A DNA stretch of 37,827 nt, from positions 1 through 37,827 of the IMG/VR virus record IMGVR_UViG_2534681663_000017. One strand, written 5' to 3'. Source of the stretch: a virus (Duplodnaviria > Heunggongvirae > Uroviricota > Caudoviricetes). A program made the position numbers and the translations under genes. Positions 1-27,116 of the stretch are shown piece by piece; the first letter of the stretch is position 1; every line of letters starts with the position of its first letter. Under the pieces are notes generated by a model. It worked only from the letters and a program-made list of their open reading frames with translations, ran no database searches and was not told where the DNA came from.

Positions 1-468
1 TTAATTTAATCGGCTACGATAAAAGTCTCTTGTTATGTTGCGATCGATGACTACTTCACAACGTGCTGAAGGTCTGTAACCCTCACGAGCCTTAATCCAT
101 GGTTCTTCTTTATGAGTCATATCTTCAAGTTGTGCGCCAGAAAAAGCACCGTAGACTTCAAGAACGCCATCAATATGAGCTGCGGTTGCGGCTGGAATGG
201 ATGAAAGATCAAACCCAGGAGTGCGATCTGCAATCGTTATGTCCGAATACAGTGATTTTGTAGAAGAGAACCGGTTATAAATCGCACGGCTTACTGGGCC
301 ATGAATCCAAGCTTGAAACTCCTCATCCACTAACTTTTTATCGAAAAAAGCTAGATACCAAGCATCTGCGTAATAAGCTAATTTTTGCAGCTTCAAATTA
401 GACATAGTTTCACCTGAAGCTAAGATTTTTGTGATGATGTAATCACATAATTGGTTAATATTTATCAT
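1..468 (-). CDS. Panacea-domain (DUF4065, GepA/SocA-like) phage-associated protein, putative antitoxin-type module
   Basis: 155-aa ORF; N-terminal region KLQKLAYYADAWYLAFF...FQAWIHGPV matches the conserved Panacea-domain pattern from memory; ATG at 468 preceded by GAGGGA Shine-Dalgarno on the minus strand; AT-rich. Confidence 0.55.
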   Translation of the reverse strand: MININQLCDYIITKILASGETMSNLKLQKLAYYADAWYLAFFDKKLVDEEFQAWIHGPVSRAIYNRFSSTKSLYSDITIADRTPGFDLSSIPAATAAHIDGVLEVYGAFSGAQLEDMTHKEEPWIKAREGYRPSARCEVVIDRNITRDFYRSRLN

Positions 469-633: not shown

Positions 634-1653
634 TTACGTAGTTACCATAGTTGCTAATGGATTAAAACGTAGCGCTGTTTCTAGGTGGTCAGGAGCCAGA
701 TGAGCATAGCGCATGGTCATTTTTATGTCGTGATGCCCAAGGATTTTCTGCAGAGCCAGGATGTTTCCGCCGGACATCATAAAGTGTGCTGCGAACGTAT
801 GACGCAGAACGTGTGTTAGCTGACCGCGTGGAAGCACAATAGAAGTCTTATCCATTACAGATAAAAACTGGAAGTAGCAGTCAGTGAAGAAATTGAAACC
901 GTCTAGGGCAATGATTTCCTCATACAGCTCTTTGCTAATCGGAATGCTTCGGTTCTTTTTGCCTTTGGTCCTGACGAATGTGATCCGGTATTTCGTAACC
1001 TGAGAACGGGTTAGGTTCACAGCTTCGCGCCAGCGTGCTCCGGTGCTCAGACAGATTTTAACGACAAGAGCGAGCAGGGGACTTTGGCGGTTGCAGTCGT
1101 ACAATAGCTCGGGAATTTGTTCATGCGTCAGCCAGGCCATCTCCTTTTCTGCGATGGTGAATTTTCGCATGTTCTCCAGTGGGTTCGGATACGACCATTC
1201 GCCCAGGCGGGATAGTTCGCTAAAAACACTACTTAGATAGCTTTGCTCCAGGTTAATGGTGACCGGGCTTGCTCCTTTCTTCCATTTCTCGCTGAAGTAG
1301 ATCTCGCCTGTCAGGCGTTTATCTCGATAGTGGGCAAACATTTTAGAGGTGAGATCAGTTGCAAGGGGATTGCCCAGAGCGTCAACCATCAGCAGCAATT
1401 TGTCATAGACATGCTGCCCAGCAGTCAGTGATTTACCATGTAGTTTGAACCATAGCTCAACCACGTCTTTTAGTGTTCGACGATCCACTGATTCACCTAG
1501 CCAGGGCTTTGCTTCGGTTTCTTCCATCGTGTGACGCTCAAAAGCCAGTGCTTCGCCTTTGGTGGCGAATTGTTTACGCACACGACGCCCACTACGTCCG
1601 GCGGGGTAACATTCGCAAAGCCATTTTCCTGTGGTGAGTTTTCGTACAGCCAT
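634..1653 (-). CDS. int: Tyrosine integrase, P2-type
   Basis: ORF track gives 391 aa but P2-family integrases begin MAVRKL...; this motif starts at ATG 1653 (340 aa). C-terminal catalytic region with HxxR...Y (LRHTFAAHFMMSGGNILALQKILGHHDIKMTMRYAHL). Confidence 0.9.
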   Translation of the reverse strand: MAVRKLTTGKWLCECYPAGRSGRRVRKQFATKGEALAFERHTMEETEAKPWLGESVDRRTLKDVVELWFKLHGKSLTAGQHVYDKLLLMVDALGNPLATDLTSKMFAHYRDKRLTGEIYFSEKWKKGASPVTINLEQSYLSSVFSELSRLGEWSYPNPLENMRKFTIAEKEMAWLTHEQIPELLYDCNRQSPLLALVVKICLSTGARWREAVNLTRSQVTKYRITFVRTKGKKNRSIPISKELYEEIIALDGFNFFTDCYFQFLSVMDKTSIVLPRGQLTHVLRHTFAAHFMMSGGNILALQKILGHHDIKMTMRYAHLAPDHLETALRFNPLATMVTT

Positions 1654-1841
1654 AAAAAATGCCCTCCAATAGAGAGCATTTTTACTGTATGTATAACCAG
1701 TGTCAATATATGAAATCCTGCGACCATACATCTCACTGAAGCCATAATGAAGTAGGCTATTCTTTTTGCTATGTGAGCATGTAACTTTTGCGGTTAACCT
1801 GTGGCTCATTTTTATTTTAGGCGCAGATATAAAAGCAAAAG

Positions 1842-2048: not shown

Positions 2049-2618
2049 CTATTTAACATACTTGACTGTTAAACTTATAATTTTACCAATTATTTCAATG
2101 TCTTCTATCTTGCATTCGAAGGCTCTGTTTCCACCCTCGACGAAGATTCTTCCACCGGGTAAACGAGTAATGTCACGGATCGTTATTTCGCCATCAATAC
2201 TTATTACCCATTTACCATCACGTATATCATCAAATTCCTTATCACAAATAAATTCAGAATTATTATCTGTGATTACAAAAAGATTCTTGAATGCCGACGG
2301 TAGAAATTCTCTATCGAAAATATAAAAACCGTCTTCACACAAGGCCCCATCAGATAATACATATTTAGCAACTTCCATAGTATTTGTATTACCTGAAGTT
2401 TGCTTTGAACCATGCCCGGTTGTGAGCCAATTAAGCGAGGTGCCTGTTTCAAGGGCGCACTGGATTACCCATTCTGCTGGGAATGAGTCACGCATGTAGC
2501 GTGTGGCGAGTGTACTTTTAGAGATTCCTAAATGATCGCACAACGCCTGTCGAGTCTTGAATCCATATGCTTCTACCATGCGCTCTATAGCGCCTCGTCC
2601 GCCTTTCTCCAAATTCAT
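2049..2618 (-). CDS. cI: Immunity repressor, phage 186 CI-like
   Basis: N-terminal region ...ERMVEAYGF...CALETGTSLNWLTTGHG resembles 186 CI as recalled; likely start ATG 2618 (GGAG 5 nt upstream on minus strand) rather than the GTG at 2624 given by the ORF track; divergent from the lytic operon. Confidence 0.75.
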   Translation of the reverse strand: MNLEKGGRGAIERMVEAYGFKTRQALCDHLGISKSTLATRYMRDSFPAEWVIQCALETGTSLNWLTTGHGSKQTSGNTNTMEVAKYVLSDGALCEDGFYIFDREFLPSAFKNLFVITDNNSEFICDKEFDDIRDGKWVISIDGEITIRDITRLPGGRIFVEGGNRAFECKIEDIEIIGKIISLTVKYVK

Positions 2619-2643
2619 GGTCACTCCAAGTGAACTTTTATCT

Positions 2644-4571: not shown

Positions 4572-4798
4572 TGGCTGATGCAATGGATCTCGTACAGCAG
4601 CGCGTTGAAGAAGAACGCCAGCGCCATATCCGTGCTGCCCGTGCCAAAACACCGGGCGTGTCTCGCGTGCTTTGTATTGAATGTGAAGCGCCAATTCCGC
4701 CAGCACGCCGCCGCGCCATTCCTGGAGTGCAGCTTTGCATTACCTGCCAGGAAATCGCAGAGCTGAAAGGCAAACATTACAACGGAGGGGCTGTATGA
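4571..4798 (+). CDS. TraR/DksA-family C4 zinc-finger protein
   Basis: 75 aa with CxxC...CxxC arrangement (CIECEAP...CITCQEIAE) typical of phage TraR/DksA-like zinc fingers; translationally coupled on both sides. Confidence 0.7.
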   Translation: MADAMDLVQQRVEEERQRHIRAARAKTPGVSRVLCIECEAPIPPARRRAIPGVQLCITCQEIAELKGKHYNGGAV

Positions 4799-5652
4799 GC
4801 ACCATCCTGAAATGGGCGGGTAATAAAACCGCCATTATGTCCGAACTGAAAAAATACCTTCCTGCTGGCCCGCGACTGGTTGAACCTTTCGCGGGTTCTT
4901 GTGCTGTGATGATGGCGACGGATTACCCCAGCTATCTGGTTGCGGATATTAATCCTGATTTAATCAACCTCTATAAAAAGATTGCCGCTGATTGCGAAGC
5001 GTTTATATCTCGTGCCAGAGTTTTATTTGAGGAAGCAAACAGTGAGCTGGCTTATTACAACATAAGACAGGAGTTTAATTACTCAACTGAAATTACTGAT
5101 TTCATGAAGGCGATATATTTCCTGTATCTCAATCGTCACGGTTACCGTGGTTTATGTCGCTATAACAAGAGCGGGCATTTCAACATTCCCTACGGTAATT
5201 ATAAAAATCCGTATTTCCCTGAAAAAGAAATTCGCGCATTTGCAGAGAAAGCCCCGCGGGCAACGTTTATCTGCGCCAGCTTTGATGAAACGCTGGCGAT
5301 GTTGAAGGCGGGGGATGTGGTGTATTGCGATCCGCCGTATGACGGTACGTTTTCCGGCTATCACACTGATGGTTTCACTGAAGATGACCAGTATCACCTG
5401 GCATCCGTTCTTGAACATCGGTCGTCAGAAGGTCATCCGGTCATTGTTTCTAACAGTGACACATCCCTGATTCGTTCGCTGTATCGCAATTTCACTCACC
5501 ACTACATCAAGGCAAAACGCAGCATCGGCGTGTCGGCTGGCGAGAGTAAATCTGCAACAGAAATCATTGCTGTTTCCGGGGCGCGCTGCTGGGTGGGATT
5601 TGATCCTTCGCGTGGCGTGGATAGTTCTGCTGTGTACGAGGTGCGTGTATGA
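4795..5652 (+). CDS. dam: DNA adenine methyltransferase (Dam-like, N6-adenine MTase)
   Basis: Starts [11 protein letters not shown] (ATG 4795, overlapping the previous stop as ATGA); contains FAGSCAV SAM-binding-like motif and catalytic DPPY (CDPPYDGTF). Confidence 0.85.
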
Positions 5653-8063
5653 GTCATGCCGATATGAGCGACTCTAGCGGCTTTAACGAGGCCGCTGCAG
5701 CATTTTCATGGAACGGCCCGAAAAAGGCCATAAACCCTTATCTGGACCCGGCGGAAGTTGCGCCGGTTTCTGCGCTTTCAAACCTGATCACTCTGTATGC
5801 TGCCGATAACGAGCAGGAACAGCTGCGCCGCGAGGAATTGAGTGAACAGGTCTGGGAGCGTTATTTCTTTAATGAATCCCGTGATCCTGTCCAGCGCGAA
5901 ATGGAGCAGGATAAGCTCATTAGTCGGGCAAAGCTGGCGCATGAGCAGCAGCGTTTTAACCCGGACATGGTCATTCTGGCGGACGTCAGCGCCCAGCCCA
6001 CCCACATCAGCAAGCCGCTGATGCAACGTATCGAATACTTCAGCAGCCTGGGCAGGCCAAAGGCTTATTCCCGCTATTTGCGTGAGACGATTAAGCCATG
6101 TCTGGAGCGACTGGATTGTGTACGCGACAGTCAGCTATCTACTTCTTTCCGTTTTATGGCAAGCCATCAAGGGCTGGAGGGCCTGCTGATCCTGCCTGAA
6201 ATGAGTCAGGATCAGGTGAAACGCCTGTCCACCCTGGTAGCTGCGCATATGAGCATGTGTCTTGAGGCCGCTTGTGGTGATTTGTATACCAACGATGACG
6301 TAAAGCCAGAAGAAATCCGCAAGACATGGGAAAAGGTGGCAGCGGAAACCCTGCGTCTGGATGTTATCCCGCCTGCGTTTGAGAAACTTCGTCGGAAAAG
6401 AAACCGCCGCAAACCTGTGCCCTATGAACTCATACCGGGTTCGCTGGCACGTATGCTTTGCGCCGACTGGTGGTATCGAAAATTGTGGAAGATGCGTTGC
6501 GAATGGCGGGAAGAGCAGTTGCGTGCTGTCTGTCTGGTCAGCAAAAAAGCATCTCCCTATGTCAGCTATGAAGCCGTGATGCATAAACGTGAGCAGCGCC
6601 GCAAGTCGCTGGAGTTTTTCCGTTCTCATGAACTGGTGAACGAAGACGGAGACACGCTGGATATGGAAGATGTGGTAAACGCCAGCAGCAGCAACCCGGC
6701 ACATCGCCGCAATGAGATGATGGCCTGCGTTAAAGGTCTGGAGCTTATCGCGGAAATGCGCGGTGACTGCGCCGTTTTCTACACCATCACATGTCCGTCA
6801 CGTTTCCATTCCACGCTCAATAACGGCAGGCCCAACCCGACCTGGACAAATGCGACGGTAAGACAAAGCAGCGATTATCTGGTCGGCATGTTTGCTGCAT
6901 TTCGTAAGGCGATGCACAAAACCGGGTTGCGCTGGTATGGCGTACGGGTGGCTGAGCCGCACCATGACGGTACTGTGCACTGGCATCTCATGTGTTTCAT
7001 GCGCAAAAAAGACCGCCGCGCCATTACTGCATTGTTGCGTAAGTTTGCCATCCGTGAAGACCGCGAGGAGCTGGGCAATAACACGGGCCCACGCTTTAAG
7101 TCTGAGCTGATAAACCCACGCAAAGGAACGCCGACAAGCTACATCGCAAAATACATCAGTAAGAACATTGACGGGCGTGGTCTGGCTGGCGAGATCAGCA
7201 AGGAAACGGGTAAATCCCTGCGTGATAACGCCGAATACGTTAATGCCTGGGCGTCTCTGCATCGTGTTCAGCAGTTCCGCTTCTTTGGTATTCCGGGGCG
7301 CCAGGCTTACCGTGAACTGCGATTGCTGGCTGGTCAGGCGGCAAGACAACAGGGTGACAAAAAAGCAGGTGCGCCGGTACTGGATGATCCGCGTCTTGAT
7401 GCCATCCTGGCTGCTGCTGATGCTGGTTGTTTTGCCACCTACATCATGAAGCAGGGCGGCGTACTGGTTCCCCGCAAATATCACCTTATCAGAACAGCTT
7501 ATGAAATTAACGAAGAGCCGACTGCCTATGGCGATCACGGTATTCGTATTTATGGCATCTGGTCACCCATTTCAGAGGGCAAGATCTGCACTCATGCAGT
7601 GAAGTGGAAAATGGTTCGTAAGGCCGTTGACGTTCAGGAGGCGGTAGCCGACCAGGGCGCTTGCGCCCCTTGGACTCGTGGCAATAACTGTCCCCTTGCT
7701 GAAAATTTGTACCAACAAGGGAAAGACAAATCAGCTGATGGGGGCTCCAGAACGGACATTACCCGCATGGATGACAAGGAATTGCACGATTACCTGCACA
7801 GTATGAGCAAAAAAGATCGCCGGGAGCTGGCAGCAAGGTTGCGCTTGGTGAAACCGAAACGGCGTAAAGACTACAAACAGCGAATTACAGATCATCAGCA
7901 TCAGCAGCTCGTCTATGAACTGAAGTCCAGAGGATTTGATGGCAGCGAGAAAGAAGTCGATTTGCTCCTTCGCGGTGGCAGTATTCCGTCAGGAGCAGGC
8001 TTGCGTATCTTCTATCGGAACCAGCGTTTGCGGGAAGATGATAAGTGGCGGAACCTGTATTAA
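5649..8063 (+). CDS. A: Replication initiation endonuclease, P2 gpA family (rolling-circle initiator)
   Basis: 804-aa ORF; HUH-like metal motif [11 protein letters not shown] and paired-tyrosine region YIAKYISKN, as recalled for P2 A; start overlaps dam stop (ATGA). Confidence 0.9.
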
Positions 8064-8158
8064 TTACGCGGGTTAACAATTCGTGCTCTTAATAATACCA
8101 GGCATATCAGGCTGATGAACGTAAAAAAACGTTTTACATCAGTAAGATTATTATATAC

Positions 8159-8174
8159 TGTAAATATAAACAGT
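8159..8174. promoter_or_regulatory. LexA (SOS) box CTGT-N8-ACAG
   Basis: CTGTAAATATAAACAG (flanks TACTGT...ACAGTG) matches the E. coli LexA operator consensus; lies 43 bp upstream of the small ORF/DinI-like operon. Confidence 0.6.
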
Positions 8175-8216
8175 GGTTATGTATACAGCATTTCTTGTGG
8201 TGTCATAGGAGGAAAG

Positions 8217-8405
8217 ATGCAGGACTATTTTTTGGAGTCTTTGAAGCTCCAGCGCATTGATTTTTTTCTTAAGCTTGTAGCGGCTAGTGAGTGTAGTGAT
8301 GAAGAGAAGGGGCTGGCTTTGCAGTGGGGTTCTGAACTAACAGATGAACTCATGGCAAAAATCAGAACCCACGAATACAACCGCTCAATGGATGTCATCA
8401 GTTGA
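8217..8405 (+). CDS. Small hypothetical protein, first gene of LexA-box operon (possible N-terminal part of a Tum-like antirepressor)
   Basis: 62-aa ORF from ATG 8217 with AGGAGG 3 nt upstream; ends 10 bp before the DinI-like gene. Confidence 0.4.
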   Translation: MQDYFLESLKLQRIDFFLKLVAASECSDEEKGLALQWGSELTDELMAKIRTHEYNRSMDVIS

Positions 8406-8415
8406 GGTGACTTTT

Positions 8416-8649
8416 ATGCGCATTGAAATAATGATCGATAAAGAGCAGAAGATTAGCCAGTCTATCCTGGACGCCCTTGAATCCGAGCTTTACCGCAATC
8501 TGCGCCCCCTGTATCCCAAAACGGTAATTCGTATCCGCAAAGGTAGCTCTAACGGTGTGGAACTGACCGGACTGCAACTGGACGAAGAAAGAAAACAAGT
8601 GATGAAAATTATGCAGAAGGTGTGGGAAGACGACAGCTGGCTGCATTAA
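8416..8649 (+). CDS. DinI-family protein (Tum C-terminal-domain-like)
   Basis: MRIEIMIDKEQ...ILQKVWEDDSW aligns by eye with E. coli DinI (MRIEVTIAK...ILQETWESADDW); GAGGTGA upstream of ATG 8416. Confidence 0.75.
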   Translation: MRIEIMIDKEQKISQSILDALESELYRNLRPLYPKTVIRIRKGSSNGVELTGLQLDEERKQVMKIMQKVWEDDSWLH

Positions 8650-8651
8650 GA

Positions 8652-8694
8652 AACGTTGCTGGCGTCTGAACTTGCTTCTGACGTCAGCAACGTT
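8652..8694 (+). terminator. Hairpin after DinI-like gene (15-bp stem, one mismatch)
   Basis: AACGTTGCTGGCGTC ... GACGTCAGCAACGTT inverted repeat immediately after the stop; no strong T-tract, so terminator function is uncertain. Confidence 0.3.
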
Positions 8695-8915
8695 GAACAA
8701 CTAGTTTAGTGGGGCATTAGTCATGGGGTAAAATACAGTAACCATTATTTTCACTTCCGCTCAGATTTAACCGAACGTTAGTTTTGCTACGTATGATGGG
8801 CTGCAAATTACCTTTTGGGATTTGTGATAGATACGAAAATCCTATTAGATGCTTGTTAGACCGGAAGCGCCACTTCGAACGAAAAGTAATGGCCACTTAT
8901 GCCGGTTTAAAAGCC

Positions 8916-9446
8916 TTAACCTTGTATAGTTATTTGAATATTTTCTTCATTGACACCAAAGTATAGGGCTAGCCCTGCTTTTGCCTCCTGAAGTGTTAAC
9001 GGCTTAACTACATTTTCTTCTTCTTCTTCGTACTCATCACCCGCTTGATCGACAATCGAATTAGTCGGGGTTAATTTTGGAAGAGCTTTAAATTCCAACT
9101 TGTCAGCCTCAATGCCAATGTCTTTGAGGTTGCGATAAGAAACGGGATTCCGATTGCCATCCCATTGTCCTGGGATGTCAATTTCAGCATAAGAATTGAT
9201 GTTTATGATCCAGCGTTTAGGGTTTTCTGGAGCCCTGCTTACTCCCGAGATTCGACCGATCATAAAAGCATGATGATGTTTTGCTTCTTGTGATCCCCAG
9301 TCCTTTCTCGAATTTTGTACACAAACTAAATATTCGTGCTTAGCTGCATGGCTGGCGTCAAGTCTCCATGCTTGGCTTCCCCCTGTGTTCAAAATCTCTG
9401 TTAAACCACGAGCAGTAAGTACAGTAATACAGTTGGTAGTAGCCAT
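8916..9446 (-). CDS. Hypothetical cargo protein at the old/tin-equivalent position (acidic EEEEE stretch), candidate defence or accessory gene
   Basis: 176-aa ORF on the opposite strand to the early operon, RBS GGAGTCAC before ATG 9446, AT-rich codon usage; no motif recognised. Confidence 0.55.
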   Translation of the reverse strand: MATTNCITVLTARGLTEILNTGGSQAWRLDASHAAKHEYLVCVQNSRKDWGSQEAKHHHAFMIGRISGVSRAPENPKRWIININSYAEIDIPGQWDGNRNPVSYRNLKDIGIEADKLEFKALPKLTPTNSIVDQAGDEYEEEEENVVKPLTLQEAKAGLALYFGVNEENIQITIQG

Positions 9447-9763
9447 TGAATTGTGACTCCGTCTTTTTTAGAGAAATACTATTGATGAATGTAGTTTACG
9501 TATTTTTTTATTGAGTAGTCAAGTTAGTATTCTGCTCGTTATTGGCTGTTTTTTGAGTGTTGTGAGTTAGTACTTTGTGTAGTACCTCTTGGTTTATGAG
9601 GGTTAAATCTAAGTTATGACAAAGGGAGGCAGGGGGAACGCGCAGCGCAAGGGGTACAGGAGGCCATAAGGACTCACTTGAAGTAAGAAAAGATCGATAA
9701 AGCAACAATGCATGTCTATGCCGCATGAATTCGCATGATCGTTTGAGGATCGTTTTAGCTGAG

Positions 9764-9791
9764 GCCCGCTAGGAATGGCGGGCTTTTGTTT
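9764..9791 (+). terminator. Rho-independent terminator-like hairpin (GCCCGC-loop-GCGGGC + TTTTGTTT)
   Basis: 6-bp GC stem, 8-nt loop, followed by a T-tract; located just upstream of the cos-like motif. Confidence 0.4.
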
Positions 9792-9832
9792 ATGTCATGC
9801 AAGTGCATGAAAACCACTACATAAAGCGGGCA

Positions 9833-9851
9833 GGCGTGGCGGGGATACGAG
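9833..9851 (+). other. Candidate cos site (cohesive-end motif GGCGTGGCGGGGA...)
   Basis: GGCGTGGCGGGGATACGAG followed by GCGCGC resembles the 19-nt cohesive ends recalled for 186 (GGCGTGGCGGGGAAAGCAT) and P2 (GGCGAGGCGGGGAAAGCAC); orientation relative to Q is as in P2. Match is partial and recalled from memory. Confidence 0.35.
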
Positions 9852-10133
9852 CGCGCGCACCTTCTAATAATTACAAAGTCATTGAGATATGCAGGGGATA
9901 TTCTATATTTCATTTAATCGATATACCCAACCGAGCTACTAGATTGATTGTGCAAAGTTAATCAACTAACTATTAGGTGAAAATATATTCCCAATAGTTA
10001 TCATTCAGATTTATTTAATTCCTCGTTCGTATCATTTTTTATTTACCAATAAGCTGTGTGATTTTTATGTTAAATTAACGGCAATAGCATAATATGTTGT
10101 GAAAATGTGATGAGATCTACTTGATATTATTTT

Positions 10134-10139
10134 TATAAT
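10134..10139 (+). promoter_or_regulatory. Perfect -10 hexamer TATAAT upstream of the cargo operon (weak -35)
   Basis: TATAAT at 10134..10139 in an AT-rich leader about 80 bp before the 10217 start; no good -35 at 17-bp spacing. Confidence 0.25.
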
Positions 10140-10216
10140 GGTGTTAATTGTTAGTCAGCTAAACGGTGTTACATTTTATTTTCAACGAAATTAAGTTTTT
10201 GTCATGGAGAGGCTTT

Positions 10217-11038
10217 ATGAAGGTTAGTTTTGATGTTGTTATTAAAAGTGGTGCTTATGATGTTGATATGGATTACGCGCTTAAAACATTAGCTGGTACA
10301 TCGAATGTAGTTTGCCTTTTGGCAGAAGCGATACTTCGTGGAAGAATTATTGAACGGCGTACCCATGCAAATGATATCAGAGCAAAGCTTAAACACAGTT
10401 TTCCGGGTTCTTATGGTCAAAAATTTGACATCGAGATAAATGACTCGACACTGATTTCTCGTTTGAATTCTATGGGACGTAGTGTTTTCTCTGAAGTAAT
10501 GAGTTACTATATTTGTGAAGCGCTATATGTTGAGCATAATGGTTTGACAGATGCAGCACAGAAAATCATTGATAGTTTAGTTGCAATAGAGGATGAGCTT
10601 ACAAAGCGAATTCGTTCCCCACTAAAAGATATGCATAAAGTCACTACAATGAATGGTTATAATGTTGAGTTATCTTATCGAAAACCTGGATCACCAGAAA
10701 ACATTATAACGTTGACACCAGAAACTGAGATTAATATTTCAGATACTGAAATACTACAGGTTTCCCATGATATATCTGTAATCATAACTCGTTTTAATTC
10801 AATGACAGGAAATGGTCGACTTATACTTGAAGGGTATGAAGAACATGGCACTGTAGCATTTGGATTTTATGATAATTTAAGATATGTAACAGAAAACCAT
10901 AAAAGACAAATCACTCAAAACTTGCATCACAATAATGGCCTTCCATCAGATAGATGGCAATATATGAATTTAACTGTAAGTGATATGGTTCTTCCTAGTG
11001 GGGATGTTATTAAATATCTAATTCGTAATATACCTTGA
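10217..11038 (+). CDS. Hypothetical soluble protein, gene 1 of AT-rich two-gene cargo operon (candidate defence sensor/partner)
   Basis: ORF track starts at GTG 10166; ATG 10217 has GGAGAGG upstream (273 aa). No recognisable catalytic motif; strongly AT-biased codons. Confidence 0.6.
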   Translation: MKVSFDVVIKSGAYDVDMDYALKTLAGTSNVVCLLAEAILRGRIIERRTHANDIRAKLKHSFPGSYGQKFDIEINDSTLISRLNSMGRSVFSEVMSYYICEALYVEHNGLTDAAQKIIDSLVAIEDELTKRIRSPLKDMHKVTTMNGYNVELSYRKPGSPENIITLTPETEINISDTEILQVSHDISVIITRFNSMTGNGRLILEGYEEHGTVAFGFYDNLRYVTENHKRQITQNLHHNNGLPSDRWQYMNLTVSDMVLPSGDVIKYLIRNIP

Positions 11039-11048
11039 TAGAGTTATT

Positions 11049-11744
11049 ATGAAAATTCACTCTATTAAAATCTTTGCTGCATTAGTAATTATAATTACGT
11101 GGTTGAGTTATTTTGCAAAGTTTGGTGATTGGTTTAACTTCTCGAGTGATACGGCTGTTTGGGGGCAGTTTGGGGATTTTTTAGGAGGGGTGATTAATCC
11201 ACTGCTTACATTTATATCTGTTGTTTACTTGATTAACTCTGTAAATCTTCAGCGAGAGGCGAACGCTAGCCTGATTGCGCTTGAAGAGTTTAAGAAAACT
11301 GAGACCAAATTTTATAACATGCTTGAGTCACAACGAAGTGGCTTCGAAAGCTTTAAAATTGTAGATAGTGTGGATGGGAAACCTTTAGTTATCAAGGACG
11401 GTGACGCGGTTACATATATTGAGGATGTTGTTGTAGAAATGGTAATCCAAGGAAGTACAAAAGGAGAAATCTCAAATAAAATAGGTGGAATGGATAAAGC
11501 GGATAATATATTTAGTATAGTGAGGCGCTTTCATAATATTATTAAGTTGATTAAAAGGGAAATTCCGGAAAACTTAAGAAGTGAATATTATGATAGTTTA
11601 GTTAATATGACTGAGTATAAGCAAATATGTCTTATATTAATATCAATGGAGCTTTTTGATTGGCCTATTTTAAGTAGCATTGATGAAAGTGGTGTGTTTA
11701 ATATTGAGGCATTAATGGAATATAGAAAAGCATTTAGACCATAA
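11049..11744 (+). CDS. Two-TM membrane protein, gene 2 of cargo operon (candidate membrane effector)
   Basis: 231 aa; two N-terminal hydrophobic helices (IKIFAALVIIITWLSYFAKF and FGDFLGGVINPLLTFISVVYLI) then a charged soluble domain; starts 10 bp after gene 1. Confidence 0.65.
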   Translation: MKIHSIKIFAALVIIITWLSYFAKFGDWFNFSSDTAVWGQFGDFLGGVINPLLTFISVVYLINSVNLQREANASLIALEEFKKTETKFYNMLESQRSGFESFKIVDSVDGKPLVIKDGDAVTYIEDVVVEMVIQGSTKGEISNKIGGMDKADNIFSIVRRFHNIIKLIKREIPENLRSEYYDSLVNMTEYKQICLILISMELFDWPILSSIDESGVFNIEALMEYRKAFRP

Positions 11745-11750
11745 CTGAAT

Positions 11751-11786
11751 AAGAAACAATGCTTAGGCATTGTTTCTTGTGTTTAT
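11751..11786. terminator. Terminator hairpin between cargo operon and portal gene (12-bp perfect stem)
   Basis: AAGAAACAATGC-TTAG-GCATTGTTTCTT followed by GTGTTTATAAT; sits between the convergent 3' ends of the two-TM gene and Q. Confidence 0.55.
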
Positions 11787-11788
11787 AA

Positions 11789-12820
11789 TCAATCAAGGTT
11801 ATATTTTTTGAATTGAATAATTTTATCTTCTAGCCATTCATTAACTTCTTTCATCCTTTTTTGTAATGGTAAAAGTTCATTTCGAACAAAAACATTCGCT
11901 GCCTTCTCCACATCCCCAAATCCCCCAACATTATTCGGCATTATCCCCATCATTTGTGGCGGCACACGATGCGCCGCCATCATGTCGTCCCGGCTCACGT
12001 TCTTGATATTCAGGAACTCATCCTTCGCCGCCACTTCTGACAACGGGATAATCTGAAGCCCGTCCTTTTTACCGTTAGGCGAGTACATAAACAGGTTACG
12101 GAAGTTACCAGGACCTTTGGCGCTTTTCATCGCATTGCGGAGGTTGTTCACATCCTCCTGGTTCTGCGCAGCATCGGTCATGTACATGATGAAGCCTGCA
12201 TGACTGCCGTTAATGTAATACTTGCGGCGGAACAGCGTGGCGGACTCGTTGAGCAGAGCTGACGGAATGGCAGAAAGATAACCGGGCAGGCCGTAGATCT
12301 CCTGGTTGATGTCCGGTTCCATCAGATGAAAAATGCTGCCTTTCGTGAACTGATACGGCTGGGGTGTCATACCGTATTGCACAAACCAGTAGGTATCCAG
12401 GTCTAACCCGCGTCGGGTGTATTTTGCCAGCGCAGGCTCAAGGGCGATAACTTCACCGAATCGGTTCGTGCGTTTCTCCAGGTAGGCGTTACCAAATACC
12501 AGATAGTCCTGCACAAAACGCGAAAAAGCCTGCTGGCTGAGCAGCGGATGAGGGATATAGGTACTGGTCAGAATGTTGCACTTTACTGCAATCGGGGAAC
12601 TGTGATGCACGGCAGCGCGGAAGGTGCGCGCCAGTCCGTCAAAGCTGACGGGCGGCTCATACCAACGGTCCATCTGTACGCATTCCACATAGTCCAGCAG
12701 TTCTCGGCGGTCCAGAACAGGAACGGGATCGCCGAAGCTGAATGCTTCGGCTGTAGTCTGGTTTTTAAGCTGGATCTGTTTCGTCGCCGCAGCGCGGTTC
12801 TTCTTACTCTTTCCCATCAA
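11789..12820 (-). CDS. Q: Portal (capsid) protein, P2 gpQ family
   Basis: 343-aa ORF, size and position match P2 Q; translationally coupled to P upstream on the minus strand. Confidence 0.9.
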   Translation of the reverse strand: MMGKSKKNRAAATKQIQLKNQTTAEAFSFGDPVPVLDRRELLDYVECVQMDRWYEPPVSFDGLARTFRAAVHHSSPIAVKCNILTSTYIPHPLLSQQAFSRFVQDYLVFGNAYLEKRTNRFGEVIALEPALAKYTRRGLDLDTYWFVQYGMTPQPYQFTKGSIFHLMEPDINQEIYGLPGYLSAIPSALLNESATLFRRKYYINGSHAGFIMYMTDAAQNQEDVNNLRNAMKSAKGPGNFRNLFMYSPNGKKDGLQIIPLSEVAAKDEFLNIKNVSRDDMMAAHRVPPQMMGIMPNNVGGFGDVEKAANVFVRNELLPLQKRMKEVNEWLEDKIIQFKKYNLD

Positions 12821-14583
12821 AAAATCTCCACAATATTGCTGGTATTGGCGGATTCGCCCTGCAGCGGTTCGTTAAACAGTGCGTGCATTGTTGCCCAGGC
12901 CAGATCGGCGTGGCTGGCTTCTTCGCTGCGGCTGGCTTCATAGGTCGGGCGGTTGCCGCTGGCGGTGGTTGCGCGACGGATTGCCATGAATGACTGCGCA
13001 ATGTCGGTGTGTCCGGCGTCAAACTCCAGACGGCGGTGGCTGATAATGTCGTAGGCCTTGAGTACCAGGGCGTTTTTAACGTTGGGATTGTAGACAAACT
13101 CCCTGACGGCAGGAAAAAACGCTTTCACGTTCTCGTAAACCCCGTGACCGACGCCGGTCGAGTCGATGCCGATATAGGTCACGTTATACTGTTCGGTCAG
13201 TTTTTTGATGGCGTCAGCCTGGGCGCGGAAGTCCATCCCGCGCCACTGGTGACGCTCAAGAATGCGGAACTTACCGCCCGGCACGGCTGGCGGTGCCACC
13301 ACCACGCATCCGGCGCTGTCGCCGTTCTGTGTACCTTTTGCCGGGTCATAACCGATCCAAACCTCGCGCCAGCCAAACGGGCGCAGCGCCAGTGCATGAA
13401 AGTCGGTCCAGACTTCCCAACTGTCCACCATGCACGCCTGCAGCTCGCTGAGCGGGAACACGGACGCGAGATCGTCCACGAACTCACACATCAGCAGGTT
13501 CTGGTATTCGTCCGGGCTGTACTCCATGCGCAACTGGTCGAGATCGAACAGGTTACAGCCGCCGCGCACCGCATCTTCCACGGTGACTATCTGGCGGTAT
13601 TGCCCGTCTGCGCACAGCAGGCCGGGGGCCAGATTGTTGTGGGACAGGTCGATGTCCACCTTATCGGCTTTGTTGCGCCCACGATTGAACAGCGCACCGG
13701 ACCAGAACGGATAAGCACTGTGGGTCAGGCTGGATGGCGTGGAAAAATAGGTTTGTCGCCATTTTTTGTGAATAGCCATACCGGAAGCCACTTTGCGCAG
13801 CTCCTGAAATTTCGGTATCCAGAAATATTCATCCAGATACAGGTTGCCGTGATAACTCTGGGCCGTGCGGGCATTGGTGCCGAGGAAGTAAAGCGTGGCA
13901 CCGTTAGGAAGCACCATCGGATCACCTTTCAGCTCCACCTCCACTTCTTTGGCGAAGTCGATGATGTACTGCTTAAAGACGTAGGCCTGTGCCTTGCTGG
14001 CGGAAAGGAAAATCTGGTTACGTCCGGTCAGCAGGGCGTCAATCAGGGCTTCACGGGCAAAATAGAAGGTTGCGCCGATCTGGCGTGACTTCAGCAGGTT
14101 GCGGATGCGGTTGGTTTTTCCGGCTTCCCACCAGTGGCGCTGGTAGTTGAACATGGAGGAATGGAAAATTTCTTCCAGCTTCTCAATCTGTTCATCGGTG
14201 AAAACGTTCTTTTCCGGCTGACGGCGTGGGCCTTTGTTGCGGTTGGCGACGTTAGGGTTTAAGTCGGATTCGTTGCCGCCATTGTTAAACTTGCCGATCC
14301 GCGCGTGGCGTTCCGACTGGCGCGCCAGCAGGTCAATCTCTTTGAAATCTTTCCCTTCTTTGTGCTCCTTCATAATGAGCTGGCAGTAGCGTGCGGCGGT
14401 GGTGAGCTGCATCTGATCCAGCGGCCCATAGTCACCCCACTTGTCGCGTTTTTTCCAGCTGTGAACGGTTGCAACTTTCTCGCCCAGCATTTCAGCAATG
14501 CGGGCTACGCGGTATCCCTGAAAGTACAGCAGCATGGCCTGCCGACGGGGATCGAGATCTGCGGGTGTCAGTGTGGTGTTCAT
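12817..14583 (-). CDS. P: Terminase large (ATPase) subunit, P2 gpP family
   Basis: 588 aa; Walker-A-like SRQIGATFYF region and P2-P-like length; divergent from the O-N-M-L operon. Confidence 0.9.
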   Translation of the reverse strand: MNTTLTPADLDPRRQAMLLYFQGYRVARIAEMLGEKVATVHSWKKRDKWGDYGPLDQMQLTTAARYCQLIMKEHKEGKDFKEIDLLARQSERHARIGKFNNGGNESDLNPNVANRNKGPRRQPEKNVFTDEQIEKLEEIFHSSMFNYQRHWWEAGKTNRIRNLLKSRQIGATFYFAREALIDALLTGRNQIFLSASKAQAYVFKQYIIDFAKEVEVELKGDPMVLPNGATLYFLGTNARTAQSYHGNLYLDEYFWIPKFQELRKVASGMAIHKKWRQTYFSTPSSLTHSAYPFWSGALFNRGRNKADKVDIDLSHNNLAPGLLCADGQYRQIVTVEDAVRGGCNLFDLDQLRMEYSPDEYQNLLMCEFVDDLASVFPLSELQACMVDSWEVWTDFHALALRPFGWREVWIGYDPAKGTQNGDSAGCVVVAPPAVPGGKFRILERHQWRGMDFRAQADAIKKLTEQYNVTYIGIDSTGVGHGVYENVKAFFPAVREFVYNPNVKNALVLKAYDIISHRRLEFDAGHTDIAQSFMAIRRATTASGNRPTYEASRSEEASHADLAWATMHALFNEPLQGESANTSNIVEIF

Positions 14584-16637: not shown

Positions 16638-17288
16638 ATGAGCCTGAGTCCAGCACGGCAGCATCGCCTGCGCGTTCAGGCTGAACAGGCCGCCCGCGAG
16701 GGCGGCAGTGTTCGCCACGCGTCGGGCTATGACCTGATGCTGCTGCAACTGGCGGAAGACCGCCGCCGTCTCAAGGGTGTTCAGTCCACGGTCAAAAAAG
16801 CGGAAATCAAGGTGGAGCTGCTGCCGAAGTACGCCGCCTGGGCAGAGGGTGTCCTGGCTGCCGGAGGCGCACAGCAGGATGACGTGCTGATGTACGTGAT
16901 GCTGTGGCGCATTGATGCCGGAGATTATGCCGGGGCGCTGGAGATCGGGCGTCACGCCCTGCGTCATGGCTGGGTGATGCCGTTAGGTAACCGCAACGTG
17001 CAGACCGTGCTGGCAGAGGAAATGGCAGATGCAGCCCAGAGCGCAATGCTTGCCGCCACCGGCTTTGATGCCGATCTGTTGCTGCAGACGCTGGAGCTGA
17101 CAGACGGTCTGGATATGCCGGACCAGTCACGGGCGCGTCTGCATAAAGCGATTGGCGCTGTCCTGAGTGAAAGCAATCCGGCTTCCGCCCTTAATCATCT
17201 CAACCATGCGTTACAGCTCGATCCCCGCTGTGGCGTGAAAAAAGACAAACAGCAGCTGGAGCGCAGACTGCGCAATGACAGCCGCTGA
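16638..17288 (+). CDS. M: Terminase endonuclease (small) subunit, P2 gpM family
   Basis: 216 aa directly after N, as in P2. Confidence 0.85.
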   Translation: MSLSPARQHRLRVQAEQAAREGGSVRHASGYDLMLLQLAEDRRRLKGVQSTVKKAEIKVELLPKYAAWAEGVLAAGGAQQDDVLMYVMLWRIDAGDYAGALEIGRHALRHGWVMPLGNRNVQTVLAEEMADAAQSAMLAATGFDADLLLQTLELTDGLDMPDQSRARLHKAIGAVLSESNPASALNHLNHALQLDPRCGVKKDKQQLERRLRNDSR

Positions 17289-19700: not shown

Positions 19701-20094
19701 AGCAGTGCCTTATGTCCATAATAACCCGGACAAACTGCATCTGTTTGTGGATAACGGTTCGCTGGTTGCCACGGGGGCCAGCTCCATGTCATGGGAGTAC
19801 CGTTACACCCTGAACGTGGTGATTGAGGATTTCAGCGGCGACCAGAATCTGCTGATGGCCCCGGTTTTGCTGTGGCTGCGGGATAACCAGCCCGATGCCA
19901 TCAATAACCCGGCGTTACGGGAAAAGGTATTTACCTTTGAGGTGGATATTTTACGCAACGATGTCTGTGATATCAGCCTTAACCTGCAACTGACGGAGCG
20001 TGTGCTGGTCAGCACTGACGGCAGTGTGTCGAGTGTTGAAGCTGTAGCGGAACCCGATGAACCTGAAGAAATGTGGACGGTGAAACGTGGCTGA
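19663..20094 (+). CDS. R: Tail completion protein, P2 gpR family
   Basis: Aligns by eye with P2 R from ...QSLRHALNKAV...; likely GTG start at 19663 (AGGAGCG 5 nt upstream) rather than the TTG at 19642. Confidence 0.75.
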   Translation: MNKPQSLRHALNKAVPYVHNNPDKLHLFVDNGSLVATGASSMSWEYRYTLNVVIEDFSGDQNLLMAPVLLWLRDNQPDAINNPALREKVFTFEVDILRNDVCDISLNLQLTERVLVSTDGSVSSVEAVAEPDEPEEMWTVKRG

Positions 20095-20533
20095 ACTGCA
20101 GAAGGTGGACGACTGGCTGAGTGCTTTGCTGGCGAATCTGGAACCAGCCGCAAGAAGCCGCATGATGCGCCAGCTGGCGCAGGAACTGCGCCGGACACAG
20201 CAGCAGAATATCAGGATGCAGCGCAACCCTGATGGCAGCAGCTATGAACCTCGACGGGTAACAGCACGCAGTAAAAAGGGGTGCATCAAACGTCAGATGT
20301 TTGCAAAGCTGCGCACCACAAAATACCTGAAAACTGCCGCCAACGCCGACTCTGTCAGTGTGCAGTTTGAAGATAAGGTGCAGCGCATTGCCCGCGTTCA
20401 CCATTATGGCCTGCGTGATCGAGTTAGATATAAGGGGCCAGAAATACGTTATACAGAGCGACGTCTATTAGGCTTCTGCACTGAGAGTAACGATGCTATT
20501 AGTATAATTTTACTTCGTTATCTAACTAGTTGA
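20087..20533 (+). CDS. S: Tail completion protein, P2 gpS family (C-terminal about 35 codons AT-rich and probably remodelled by the downstream insertion)
   Basis: GTG start overlapping R stop; N-terminal two-thirds GC-rich and S-like, while the last ~110 nt are AT-rich like the adjacent island. Confidence 0.75.
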   Translation: MAELQKVDDWLSALLANLEPAARSRMMRQLAQELRRTQQQNIRMQRNPDGSSYEPRRVTARSKKGCIKRQMFAKLRTTKYLKTAANADSVSVQFEDKVQRIARVHHYGLRDRVRYKGPEIRYTERRLLGFCTESNDAISIILLRYLTS

Positions 20534-20605
20534 TATGTCTTGTTTTTTGTGGGTTTTTATAACATCATATTGGCTCTGTTATAAATAGTATGGAGAGTTT
20601 GATTG

Positions 20606-21811
20606 ATGAAAAAAAATAACGATATCAATAAACAAGTAAAATCAGAAACAGAAAATAATTCATCTGCAAATATGAATGGAAGTGGCTCGGATGAAATCCT
20701 TTCTAAGAGCACCTCTGGTACGGTGGTATGGGGAGATAACAGTTTTGGAAGTATTTCTAAATATATTAATGAGGTACTCGGTAAGAATTTATATTTAGAT
20801 ATAATTAAATCTCTTGATGCTAAGTTGAAAGCACCAGTTCAAGCTAATAGAACTACTATATTAAAGAACCTGAAGGGTAATTTCAAAGAGGAAAATCTTG
20901 TGCTTGTATTAGGCGCTGGAATTTCTTTGGATTATAAAATACCTACATGGGATGAATTATTAAGGAGGTTGCTTGCTAGAGCGTTACAAGATACTAATGA
21001 AAATCAGCAAGTTGTTGCGACATTATTTAATCAGGTGTTCGGGCCAAATGCTTTGATTGCGGCTAGATATTTAAAGTTACATTTTGAAAGTGCTAACACT
21101 CCTCTTGAGAAAGAAATTCAGAAAGTGTTATATCAATTTTATGATAGCACCGAGAGTCAAACGCTTAAGGCGATAAAGAAATTATGTATTTCTGCGGGGA
21201 AGGCTCCGGGGTTAGATTCTGTCATAACATATAATTATGACGACATACTAGAGCAAACATTACAAAACGCAGATGTTGGTATTAAATTTAAGGTTATATA
21301 TAAAACTGGGCAGCATGCAAAAAAAGATGAGTTGCCAATATATCATGTTCATGGATATCTTCCCTTAAATGGTAAGATTGATAGTGATGACAGCCTAGTT
21401 TTATCGGATGAAAGTTATCATCGGCAATATATGGATTTATATCACTGGAGTAATATGGTTCAGTTGAATAAATTCAAAGACAATAATTGTTTGTTTATAG
21501 GACATTCCTTTACTGATCCAAATTTAAGACGTCTGCTTGATGCTGCTAAAAAGTTAAGGGGTAATGATTCTAAACCTCATTACTTAATAAAATGTCGACA
21601 CTCAAAAGATGATGTTATAAATAAAATTCTAAAAGGTTCACGTCAAGATTTGAATGACGGGCTAGTCGACGATATAGACAATGTTGCCCGTTCTTTATTA
21701 GATACTGTACATAAATTTGAAGAAATTGATGCTAACTCTTTTGGTGTTAATGTTATATGGATTGATAATTTTACTGAAATAGGCCCCATAGTAACTGATT
21801 TAACTCAATAA
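20606..21811 (+). CDS. Standalone SIR2-like (sirtuin-fold, putative NAD+-consuming) protein, candidate anti-phage defence effector
   Basis: 401 aa from ATG 20606 (GGAGAG upstream); motifs LVLVLGAGISLDYKIPTWDELL, YNYDDILEQ and IYHVHGY match the SIR2-like domain pattern seen in defence-associated sirtuins; AT-rich island between S and V. Confidence 0.8.
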   Translation: MKKNNDINKQVKSETENNSSANMNGSGSDEILSKSTSGTVVWGDNSFGSISKYINEVLGKNLYLDIIKSLDAKLKAPVQANRTTILKNLKGNFKEENLVLVLGAGISLDYKIPTWDELLRRLLARALQDTNENQQVVATLFNQVFGPNALIAARYLKLHFESANTPLEKEIQKVLYQFYDSTESQTLKAIKKLCISAGKAPGLDSVITYNYDDILEQTLQNADVGIKFKVIYKTGQHAKKDELPIYHVHGYLPLNGKIDSDDSLVLSDESYHRQYMDLYHWSNMVQLNKFKDNNCLFIGHSFTDPNLRRLLDAAKKLRGNDSKPHYLIKCRHSKDDVINKILKGSRQDLNDGLVDDIDNVARSLLDTVHKFEEIDANSFGVNVIWIDNFTEIGPIVTDLTQ

Positions 21812-21860: not shown

Positions 21861-21889
21861 CCTAATAATATTTTTGTAAGTTGTGTGCC

Positions 21890-22468
21890 ATGAACGCACA
21901 ACTTACAGAAATCATGCGCCTTATCACCAACCTGATCCGCACTGGTGTAGTCACCGAAGTGGACCGGGAAAACTGGCTTTGTCGGGTGAAAACGGGCGAC
22001 CTTGAAACCAACTGGATTAACTGGCTGACGCTGCGCGCGGGTAATGCCCGCACATGGTGGAAACCATCGGAAGGTGAGCAGGTGGTGCTGCTGAGTCTGG
22101 GCGGCAATCTGGAGACCGCCTTTGCGCTGCCCGCTGTCTATTCGAATCAGTTCGCACCACCGTCGACGTCGGCGGACGCCTGCGTGACAGAACATCCTGA
22201 CGGTGGCTGGTTTGAATACGAACCCGCCACCGGGCGCTGGTATGTCAGGGGCATCAAATCAATGGTCATTGAGGCCGCTGACAAAATCACCATGAAAACC
22301 AGTGAGTTTGTACTGGAGGCTGACCGCACGCGCATTAACAGTGAAGTGGTGATCAATGGTGGCGTTACCCAGGGCGGCGGTGCAATGAGTTCTAACGGAA
22401 TTGTGGTTGATGCACATCAGCATACTGGCGTCCTGAAAGGCGGCGACACAACCGGAGGCCCGGTATGA
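21890..22468 (+). CDS. V: Baseplate assembly/spike protein, P2 gpV family
   Basis: N-terminus MNAQLTEIMRLITNLIRTGVVTEVD resembles P2 V as recalled; ORF track starts 9 nt earlier at TTG. Confidence 0.8.
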   Translation: MNAQLTEIMRLITNLIRTGVVTEVDRENWLCRVKTGDLETNWINWLTLRAGNARTWWKPSEGEQVVLLSLGGNLETAFALPAVYSNQFAPPSTSADACVTEHPDGGWFEYEPATGRWYVRGIKSMVIEAADKITMKTSEFVLEADRTRINSEVVINGGVTQGGGAMSSNGIVVDAHQHTGVLKGGDTTGGPV

Positions 22469-23719: not shown

Positions 23720-24317
23720 TCTGCTGCCACCGGGTTCAACGCCACTGGAGCGCCGACTGGCGCAAGCGTGTAGCGGGATTTCTGATCTGCAGGTGCCGCT
23801 GCGTGACTTGTGGAATCCGGCAACCTGTCCGGTCAGTTTCCTGCCTTATCTCGCCTGGGCGTTCTCTGTGGATCGCTGGGATGAGGGCTGGACAGAAAGC
23901 GTCAAACGCCAGGTGGTGAAGGATGCTTTTTATATTCATCAGCATAAAGGAACCACCAGTGCCGTGCGGCGGGGGGTGGAGCCGTTCGGCTTTCTGATCC
24001 GCATTATTGAGTGGTGGCAGACCGGAGAGACACCGGGCACGTTTCGCCTGGATATCGGCGTGCAGGACCAGGGCATCACTGAAGATACCTATCTGGAACT
24101 TGAGCGACTGATAAGCGATGCCAAACCATGTAGCCGTCACATGATCGGCATGTCCATCAATCTGCAGACCAGCGGCCCGCATTGGGTGGGAGCCGCCAGC
24201 TATCTTGGCGAAGAAATCACGATCTATCCGTATATCAACGAAACAATTATTTCCGGCGGCACCGCGCATGAAGGCGGGGCGGTCCATGTTATTGACACAA
24301 TGAGAGTGAATCCATGA
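23712..24317 (+). CDS. I: Baseplate/tail-fibre attachment protein, P2 gpI family
   Basis: 201 aa, coupled to J and H. Confidence 0.75.
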   Translation: MNSLLPPGSTPLERRLAQACSGISDLQVPLRDLWNPATCPVSFLPYLAWAFSVDRWDEGWTESVKRQVVKDAFYIHQHKGTTSAVRRGVEPFGFLIRIIEWWQTGETPGTFRLDIGVQDQGITEDTYLELERLISDAKPCSRHMIGMSINLQTSGPHWVGAASYLGEEITIYPYINETIISGGTAHEGGAVHVIDTMRVNP

Positions 24318-25705: not shown

Positions 25706-25889
25706 TCCAGTTACTTTGACTGAAGTAATCCCCGGTCTTCATGACGTGACCGGGGCTATTGAATTACCGGAGGACAACTGGTTTTTTACTATGACAGAAA
25801 TTCCTCAGGGCATGGAGCTAACAATTAATGAGAAAGGCGAACCAATACTGATTGAGGTTAATCAGTCTCAGGGAATACAGGCCAAATAA
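25692..25889 (+). CDS. Short ORF downstream of H in the current orientation (possible small or truncated tail-fibre chaperone)
   Basis: GTG 25692 with GGAGGG 6 nt upstream; only 65 aa, far shorter than typical tail-fibre assembly proteins; overlaps the convergent minus-strand gene by 32 nt. Confidence 0.3.
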   Translation: MRLFNPVTLTEVIPGLHDVTGAIELPEDNWFFTMTEIPQGMELTINEKGEPILIEVNQSQGIQAK

Positions 25890-26463
25890 TATCAGGCGCG
25901 GTGCTGGTATCTATTGCCGTCACCGCGTCAATGTAATCCAGCACAGCGTTAAGGCGGGTTGTTTCTGCCTGCGTCAGTTTACGTCCGGCCTGCAATTTCA
26001 GCTGAATCAGACTGATGGAAGCCATAGCAGCATCAATCAGAGACTGGCGCTGTACTTCTGCTGCATCTACTGCGGCGCTATGCTGTGCCTCGGTATCTGT
26101 TACCCATTTCTCACCATCCCATTTATCGTATGGCGTTAATGGGGCAAAAGTGGTCGTATTTTCAGGGTAATCCCCCGGCACAGTAATTTCTTTTGATTCC
26201 CCCGTTTCGATGCCATAGACAATTTCACCGCGATGGTCTGACACATATTCCCATGAGTTAAAATCTGCAGAACGGCAGATTGCATAACCAGCCTTATGTG
26301 TGCCGGGCGCATCGGTACAGGAATTGGCAGGAATACCCACCCCCACAGGCAGATACTCAACCGATGAGGATATGTATTCGCGGGTGTCGCCCCGGTAGTT
26401 GTACACAGTGATTTCTCCTGCCACGGTGGCAATAAACGCACTGTTTAATTTTGCTTTCGCCAT
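25858..26463 (-). CDS. Tail fibre assembly protein (Tfa/U'-like) in the inverted-orientation cassette
   Basis: 201 aa; C-terminal region ...RLNAVLDYIDAVTAIDTSTAPDIIWPVFPE resembles the conserved Tfa C-terminus; start overlaps the stop of the upstream alternative fibre segment (TAATG). Confidence 0.7.
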   Translation of the reverse strand: MAKAKLNSAFIATVAGEITVYNYRGDTREYISSSVEYLPVGVGIPANSCTDAPGTHKAGYAICRSADFNSWEYVSDHRGEIVYGIETGESKEITVPGDYPENTTTFAPLTPYDKWDGEKWVTDTEAQHSAAVDAAEVQRQSLIDAAMASISLIQLKLQAGRKLTQAETTRLNAVLDYIDAVTAIDTSTAPDIIWPVFPETD

Positions 26464-27061: not shown

Positions 27062-27116
27062 TGCAGAGATAATGGCTAACTGGCATCATCCCCGGTTTTT
27101 ATTCAGGGGGATGCTC

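Follow-up and report, generated by a model that had tools for sequence, protein, structure and literature searches.

Gene content of the prophage and of its variable interval

The window, i.e. the whole stretch of 37,827 nucleotides that was analysed, is apparently a complete 186/Fels-2-like (Peduoviridae) prophage of E. coli, with the int, CI, A, Q, P, O, N, M, L and D genes all intact (Table 1). The gpA gene forms the left border of the variable gpA-gpQ locus, and the DinI/Tum-like gene, whose annotation in the relatives covers the 234-nt 3' part only, is the final conserved early-region gene ahead of variable DNA. The order on the 3' side of the variable interval is Q, P, scaffold O, capsid N, M and head-completion L, followed by the tail genes, and beyond gpD we found the host genes for an Asp-Al_Ex-family permease and ybjM. 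Of the two terminase subunits, gpP is expected to be the enzyme that cuts at cos and gpM the subunit that recognises this site.

Table 1. Features of the prophage that are discussed in the text, with positions in the window
Feature	Position	Strand	Basis or remark
Integrase	634-1809		left end of the prophage gene order
186-type CI repressor	2049-2624		
D12-class Dam-type adenine methylase gene	4735-5652	+	directly 5' of gpA, as in Fels-2 and RE-2010
Replication gene A (gpA)	5649-8063	+	Pfam Phage_GPA, E = 6.5e-128
DinI/Tum-like gene	8344-8649	+	Pfam DinI, E = 2.5e-22; 'DinI-like family protein' in E. coli relatives
Slot-1 cargo ORF, A side of cos	8916-9446	-	phrog_37247, E = 6e-94
Conserved right-arm cos flank	9700-9832	+	column conservation 0.6-0.97 from -110 to -1 in 58 aligned cos regions
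Rho-independent terminator hairpin (GCCCGC...GCGGGC, then TTTTGTTT)	9764-9790	+	terminator scan
cos core, 55 bp, common to 186, P2 and P4	9804-9858	+	four-way ungapped alignment
Predicted 19-nt 5' cohesive end, GGCGTGGCGGGGATACGAG	9833-9851	+	identical to positions 1-19 of the annotated SEN8 cos
Slot-2 cargo cassette, cos core to Q stop	9859-11788	+	AT-rich leader, two genes, terminator
Cargo gene 1, 273-aa soluble alpha/beta protein	10217-11038	+	100% identical to WP_001710113.1; phrog_13337
Cargo gene 2, 231 aa, two N-terminal TM helices	11049-11744	+	alignment A1, predicted model
Hairpin with 14-bp stem between the convergent cargo operon and Q	11749-11780	+	terminator scan
Portal gene Q	11789-12820	-	Pfam Phage_portal; 60-93% identity to 80 portal loci
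Large terminase gene P (gpP)	12817-14583	-	Pfam Terminase_5, Terminase_6N, Terminase_6C
Small terminase gene M (gpM)	16638-17288	+	Pfam Phage_term_smal, E = 2e-40
gpD, end of the tail genes	33563-34663		

Cargo genes are found on both sides of a cos-like motif within this locus. Slot 1, on the A side, is a region of 41% G+C that contains two ORFs, one of 176 aa with a run of acidic residues (EEEEE) and one of 72 aa (9508-9726, minus strand). The larger protein matched no family in Pfam, PADLOC or NCBIfam, and its PHROGs family is annotated as 'unknown function'. It occupies the same side of cos as old/tin in P2 and orf97 in 186.

Slot 2 lies between the motif and the portal gene. Here the first-pass annotation had recognised a two-gene operon at 10217-11744, and both of its ORFs were confirmed. 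The cargo region is bounded by the cos core at one end and by the end of Q at the other, and its G+C content (32.9%, compared with 50.3% for the window) is that of foreign DNA. Promoter-like sites are present in its leader at 9882-9909 and 10110-10139, and the hairpin at its right end is the positional equivalent of the terminators tQ of P2 and tW of 186, which are situated just downstream of Q/W. The best explanation for these features is that the cargo is an AT-rich two-gene module, acquired horizontally and equipped with a promoter region and a terminator of its own.

A cos core shared with 186, P2 and P4

The 19-mer GGCGTGGCGGGGATACGAG, followed by CGCGCGC at 9852-9858, lies where a P2/186-like cohesive-end motif had been proposed, and it has the same orientation relative to A and Q as the cos sites of 186, P2 and P4. 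When the ends of these three genomes, all of which have annotated cohesive ends, were circularised and aligned to the window, the sequences matched column by column with no gaps over a core that reads TGCAT.AAAACC...AAG.GGGC. / GGCG(A/T)GGCGGGGA.... / YGCGCGC. Here a right flank of 29 nt precedes the 19-nt cohesive end and a left flank of 7 nt (CGCGCGC) follows it, and the total agrees with the 55-bp core needed for packaging, a result that is credited to Ziermann & Calendar (1990) in PMC3931495 and PMC5694545.

The predicted cohesive end is rich in G+C and starts with GGCG(A/T)GGCGGGG, as in the reference phages. It equals that of 186 over the first 13 of 13 nucleotides, while the final six bases differ (the 19-mer ends in ATACGAG in the window, AAAGCAT in 186 and AAAGCAC in P2); it is thus in these last six positions that the window departs from the experimentally sequenced ends of P2 and 186. 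In the Felsduovirus phages SEN8, Fels-2 and RE-2010, both the 19-mer and the following CGCGCGC are identical to those of the window. Moreover, the identical 19-mer is present in 33 of 65 species-level loci with a recognisable cos core. For Salmonella phage SEN8 the same 19-mer has been published as cos and the sequence record begins exactly at that base (PMC5427200); the cos carries the label 'putative' and was assigned at the annotation stage, whereas the genome itself was sequenced as phage DNA and its assembly verified against a HindIII digest of phage DNA (PMC5427200). A literature search with the exact 19-mer matched the SEN8 announcement alone and returned no end-mapping report.

The surroundings of the motif are also those of a cos site. 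A block of about 150 bp (9709-9859) has 87-96% identity to intergenic DNA of many Peduoviridae, including P2-like phages of Klebsiella, Salmonella, Yersinia and Escherichia. The order of genes around it is A, DinI, cos, (cargo), Q, P and then O, N and M, and the genes for the cognate gpP and gpM are present. The 13-nt core GGCGWGGCGGGGA has one exact copy in the 37.8-kb window; three other matches, each with 2 mismatches, are about the number expected by chance. Judged from this homology, the motif is almost certainly a genuine P2/186-type packaging site.

We also considered that the true cut site may be elsewhere, e.g. at 11745-11790 beside Q, and that the motif at 9833 is a duplicate or decoy, a possibility that is suggested by P2 and 186, in both of which cos and the portal gene are no more than about 170 bp apart. 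However, a second cos core was not found in the window with up to 2 mismatches allowed, the sequence at 11749-11780 is a simple terminator hairpin, and the full 55-bp core with its 110-bp conserved flank occurs at 9700-9858 only. A cut beside Q is accordingly extremely improbable.

Conserved elements on the right-arm side of cos

The GC hairpin with a T-tract that had been noted ahead of the motif was recovered by the terminator scan (9761/9764-9786, then TTTTGTTT). Its predicted folding energy is -20.5 kcal/mol (z = -3.65 relative to shuffled sequences), and the stem is kept in the consensus of the relatives. The hairpin would stop rightward transcription from the A/DinI side ahead of cos, and it has an analogue in 186, where the t95b terminator is situated upstream of cos.

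The flank at 9700-9832 contains five GCATG/CATGC motifs (at 9710, 9723, 9733, 9796 and 9805), whereas 0.27 would be expected in 133 nt. The consensus of the relatives retains them, and similar TGCAT repeats are found 5' of cos in P2 and 186. These repeats may be recognised by the small terminase subunit and are proposed here as candidate binding sites. Conservation among the 58 aligned cos regions is asymmetric: it extends over at least 110 nt on the A side and over 7 nt on the Q side, where it falls to the background level within about 10 nt of the cohesive end.

The distance between cos and the portal gene

The end of the 19-mer and the stop codon of Q (11789) are 1937 bp apart, in good agreement with the earlier estimate of about 1.9 kb. 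In 186 the corresponding spacing is 176 bp. For P2 the first-pass annotation had given a spacing of about 130 bp; the spacing is indeed short, but this figure is slightly low, as we measured 167 bp (cosL at 1-19, Q from 187).

We surveyed this spacing between cohesive end and Q stop at 80 portal-gene loci with one genome per species. A recognisable cos core with a GCGCG-type context was present at 65 of the 80 loci. The distance exceeds 450 bp at 54 of these 65 and is 1 kb or more at 44, with a median of 1612 bp, while the short spacing of the P2/186 type (up to 250 bp) occurs at 11 loci only. The textbook references P2 and 186 are thus a minority state in which the slot is empty. Hence the view that cargo at this place is unusual did not hold: such a layout is that of the majority, it is also seen in Fels-2, RE-2010 and SEN8, and the position is a documented hotspot. 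For instance, SEN8 has a hypothetical gene and an HNH endonuclease between cos and Q, Fels-2 a 1.7-kb gene, and RE-2010 a 1.7-kb gene that is annotated as 'abortive infection protein'. The cargo genes of these three phages and the content of their A-side slot 1 are unlike those of the window.

Exchange of cassettes next to cos

Among 5426 complete E. coli genomes, 1288 match the 8000-12900 interval and none contains it in its entirety. Nine E. coli relatives have flanks that are 95-98% identical to the window, while the content of the slot varies. The cassettes found there include an OLD-like ATP-dependent nuclease, HipA with HIRAN, the retron St85, a pair with an S1 peptidase, a set with a STAS domain and a pair with a dsDNA-nuclease domain, and two of the nine strains carry the same cargo pair as the window. 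At least seven different cassettes are therefore present between near-identical flanks in E. coli prophages, which is the variable content of a hotspot. In all nine relatives the unrelated DNA begins directly after CGCGCGC, i.e. the homology breaks 7 nt beyond the cohesive end (at about 9859 in the window).

Slot 1 varies as well. Some E. coli relatives have its larger ORF (as WP_000246368), in others it is missing or other genes take its place, and the contents of slots 1 and 2 combine freely among the relatives, which is consistent with exchange at cos. We also attempted to place the right boundary of slot 2 by aligning the Q ends of prophages with different cargo. This comparison was uninformative, because every cassette comes with a terminator of its own and Q is divergent at its 3' end.

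The locus has a long record in the literature. PMC5694545 credits the description of the cosL-gpQ position as a hotspot to Dodd & Egan (1996) and Nakayama (1999). According to its title, the former study deals with retrons that replace the sequence from cos to a terminator in a 186-related prophage; this corresponds to the interval 9859-11780 of the window. Odegrip (2006) is likewise listed among the reports of a cos-proximal hotspot between gpA and gpQ. In the survey of Rousset (2022; PMC9122126) this 'cos-proximal' locus was recorded 18,150 times in E. coli, with 1,650 gene arrangements; it was speculated in the same paper that ends generated by terminase seed recombination, and its supplementary table (Table S5A, to judge from the main text) lists WP_001710113 and WP_001710114. 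The GpA-GpQ hotspot was reconfirmed in a 2026 NAR paper. Our window has the same locus and the same swapping of cassettes as the gpA-gpQ hotspot of P2-like phages, with no structural difference. Its layout is ordinary and already catalogued, since the slot has long been known for the exchange of accessory, often anti-phage, genes. The hotspot of the P4 satellites (gop/beta/cII) is comparable in that its cargo starts on the same side of cos, directly past CGCGCGC, but it is bounded by int instead of the portal gene and generally holds other systems.

The most probable reading, to which we assign a probability of roughly 0.9 from the comparative evidence, is that 9804-9858 would be the functional cos of a 186/Fels-2-like prophage, that the interval between about 9859 and the Q stop would be an exchangeable slot, and that its present cargo most likely serves defence. 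After induction, the gpM/gpP terminase would recognise the conserved right-arm flank together with the core and would introduce nicks staggered by 19 nt, in the top strand before 9833 and in the bottom strand after 9851, as annotated for 186. The virion chromosome would then start with GGCGTGGCGGGGATACGAG and carry the cargo cassette as its leftmost genes. The DNA between about 9859 and the Q stop would be dispensable for packaging and would represent the cosL-proximal half of the gpA-gpQ hotspot; because only 7 nt (CGCGCGC) are constrained on that side, the DNA from +8 to Q may be replaced freely.

A different outcome of the same insertion is conceivable, namely that the arrival of the cargo removed packaging sequences on the left side and that the prophage can no longer be packaged from the site at 9833, which would then be a relic. 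The sequences of P2 and 186 are indeed somewhat alike past +7 (GACGGTGGTG and AGAGGTGGCG), a likeness in which the window does not share. However, the 19-mer and CGCGCGC are the same in SEN8, for which phage DNA was sequenced; its sequence is unrelated to the window from +8 onwards, and two cargo genes precede Q. The deposited phages Fels-2 and RE-2010 likewise share the core, past which they have unrelated sequence with a 1.7-kb gene. P4 is packaged by the P2 terminase and also departs from P2 at +8. Moreover, the layout recurs at 54 of the 65 surveyed loci and every packaging gene of the prophage is intact. A relic is thus very unlikely, and a functional cos next to an exchangeable slot is preferred. 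For practical purposes the 55-bp core sets the exact left boundary of the cargo (+8), which should help to delimit hotspot cassettes automatically.

The cargo proteins and their possible role in defence

Neither cargo protein has a direct match in Pfam, PADLOC or NCBIfam, and in PHROGs both belong to families annotated as 'unknown function' only. For the first protein, sub-threshold matches to DUF7946/DUF7947 were found among the homologues. Its AlphaFold2 model is confident (pLDDT 89, pTM 0.81), and a Foldseek search with this model retrieved no PDB structure at E <= 0.001, with TM scores of about 0.2.

The second protein is a 100% match to the 231-aa representative of an E. coli cluster (P0001). 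Besides the two transmembrane helices, alignment A1 and the predicted model show a WGQxGDxxGGxxNP motif that is invariant and a C-terminal domain that is helical, and the protein shares both the two N-terminal helices and the helical C-terminal domain with AbiC-like (putAbiC, PF16872) proteins. The window protein and its close homologues nevertheless lie below every Pfam threshold: when it was scanned together with 13 homologues, none reached the gathering score of PF16872 or matched it at E <= 10, and comparison of the model with BFVD gave no significant structural match. The family profile built from A1 reaches 5901 representative proteins. Among ten distant proteins that were scanned (profile E-values of about 1e-17 to 1e-19), seven match PF16872, six of them above the cut-off, and the stretches matched by the profile overlap the domain only in part. 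In addition, UniRef gives one homologue the name 'Phage abortive infection protein'. These results suggest that the second protein is distantly related to putAbiC through a transitive link. The WGQxGDxxGG motif was considered as a hallmark of the Pfam putAbiC domain and ruled out in this role, as the Pfam domain corresponds to the C-terminal half of the distant relatives. No link to AbiC was found for the 273-aa partner.

Homologues of both genes also share the cos-Q slot of a P2-like prophage in Pantoea vagans (37% identity), and a further pair is located in an island near smpB in Serratia marcescens, so that the module seems to move between different mobile contexts. The Serratia copy encodes proteins of 273 and 236 aa and lies beside smpB, in DNA that is not a P2-like prophage (LZOB01000022.1; locus L098, 5183-6711).

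The distant kinship of the second protein to putAbiC makes the pair a candidate defence system. As no direct family or structural match was obtained, this assignment draws on the location of the genes and on the transitive profile link. The cargo is most likely a putative abortive-infection or anti-phage system that would be expressed from the lysogen. A function outside anti-phage defence, such as another lysogenic-conversion or membrane function, an addiction module resembling toxin-antitoxin pairs or a gene that benefits the phage, is less probable but has to be taken seriously. PADLOC returned no matches for the cargo and the first protein is devoid of informative homology, both of which fit such a function, whereas the membership of the second protein in a large superfamily in which distant members have a putAbiC domain, and the maintenance of the pair as a mobile module in the P2 hotspot as well as in the smpB-adjacent island, argue for defence.

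A more specific form of the defence hypothesis is that 10217-11744 encodes a hitherto uncharacterised two-gene abortive-infection system, composed of the 273-aa partner and a divergent AbiC-like effector with two transmembrane helices, which moves between the cosL-proximal slot and other islands. We put this forward tentatively, at slightly less than even odds. The pair is only a mildly novel element, yet a reasonable one to include in screens for defence systems.

Other accessory loci of the prophage

Three further loci were observed outside the gpA-gpQ interval. Just beyond the integrase end, an ORF with a SocA/Panacea antitoxin domain (1-468, minus strand) is truncated by the edge of the window; it may belong to a toxin-antitoxin or defence locus beside the attachment site. 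Within the tail operon, the tail genes at 20087-20533 and 21881-22468 are separated by an ORF for a 402-aa SIR2-like protein (20603-21811, plus strand). This protein gave matches to Pfam SIR2_2 (E = 1.4e-21) and, in PADLOC, to the models LmuA, ThsA and Dsr1, and its site is likely a second slot for defence cargo. Finally, a resolvase/invertase gene (27072-27683, plus strand) adjoins minus-strand ORFs for a tail-collar protein (26463-27089) and for tail-fibre assembly (25858-26463). This cluster is situated downstream of the tail-fibre gene (24314-25705), and the layout of 25858-27683 resembles the invertible host-range segments of the Mu G and P1 C type.
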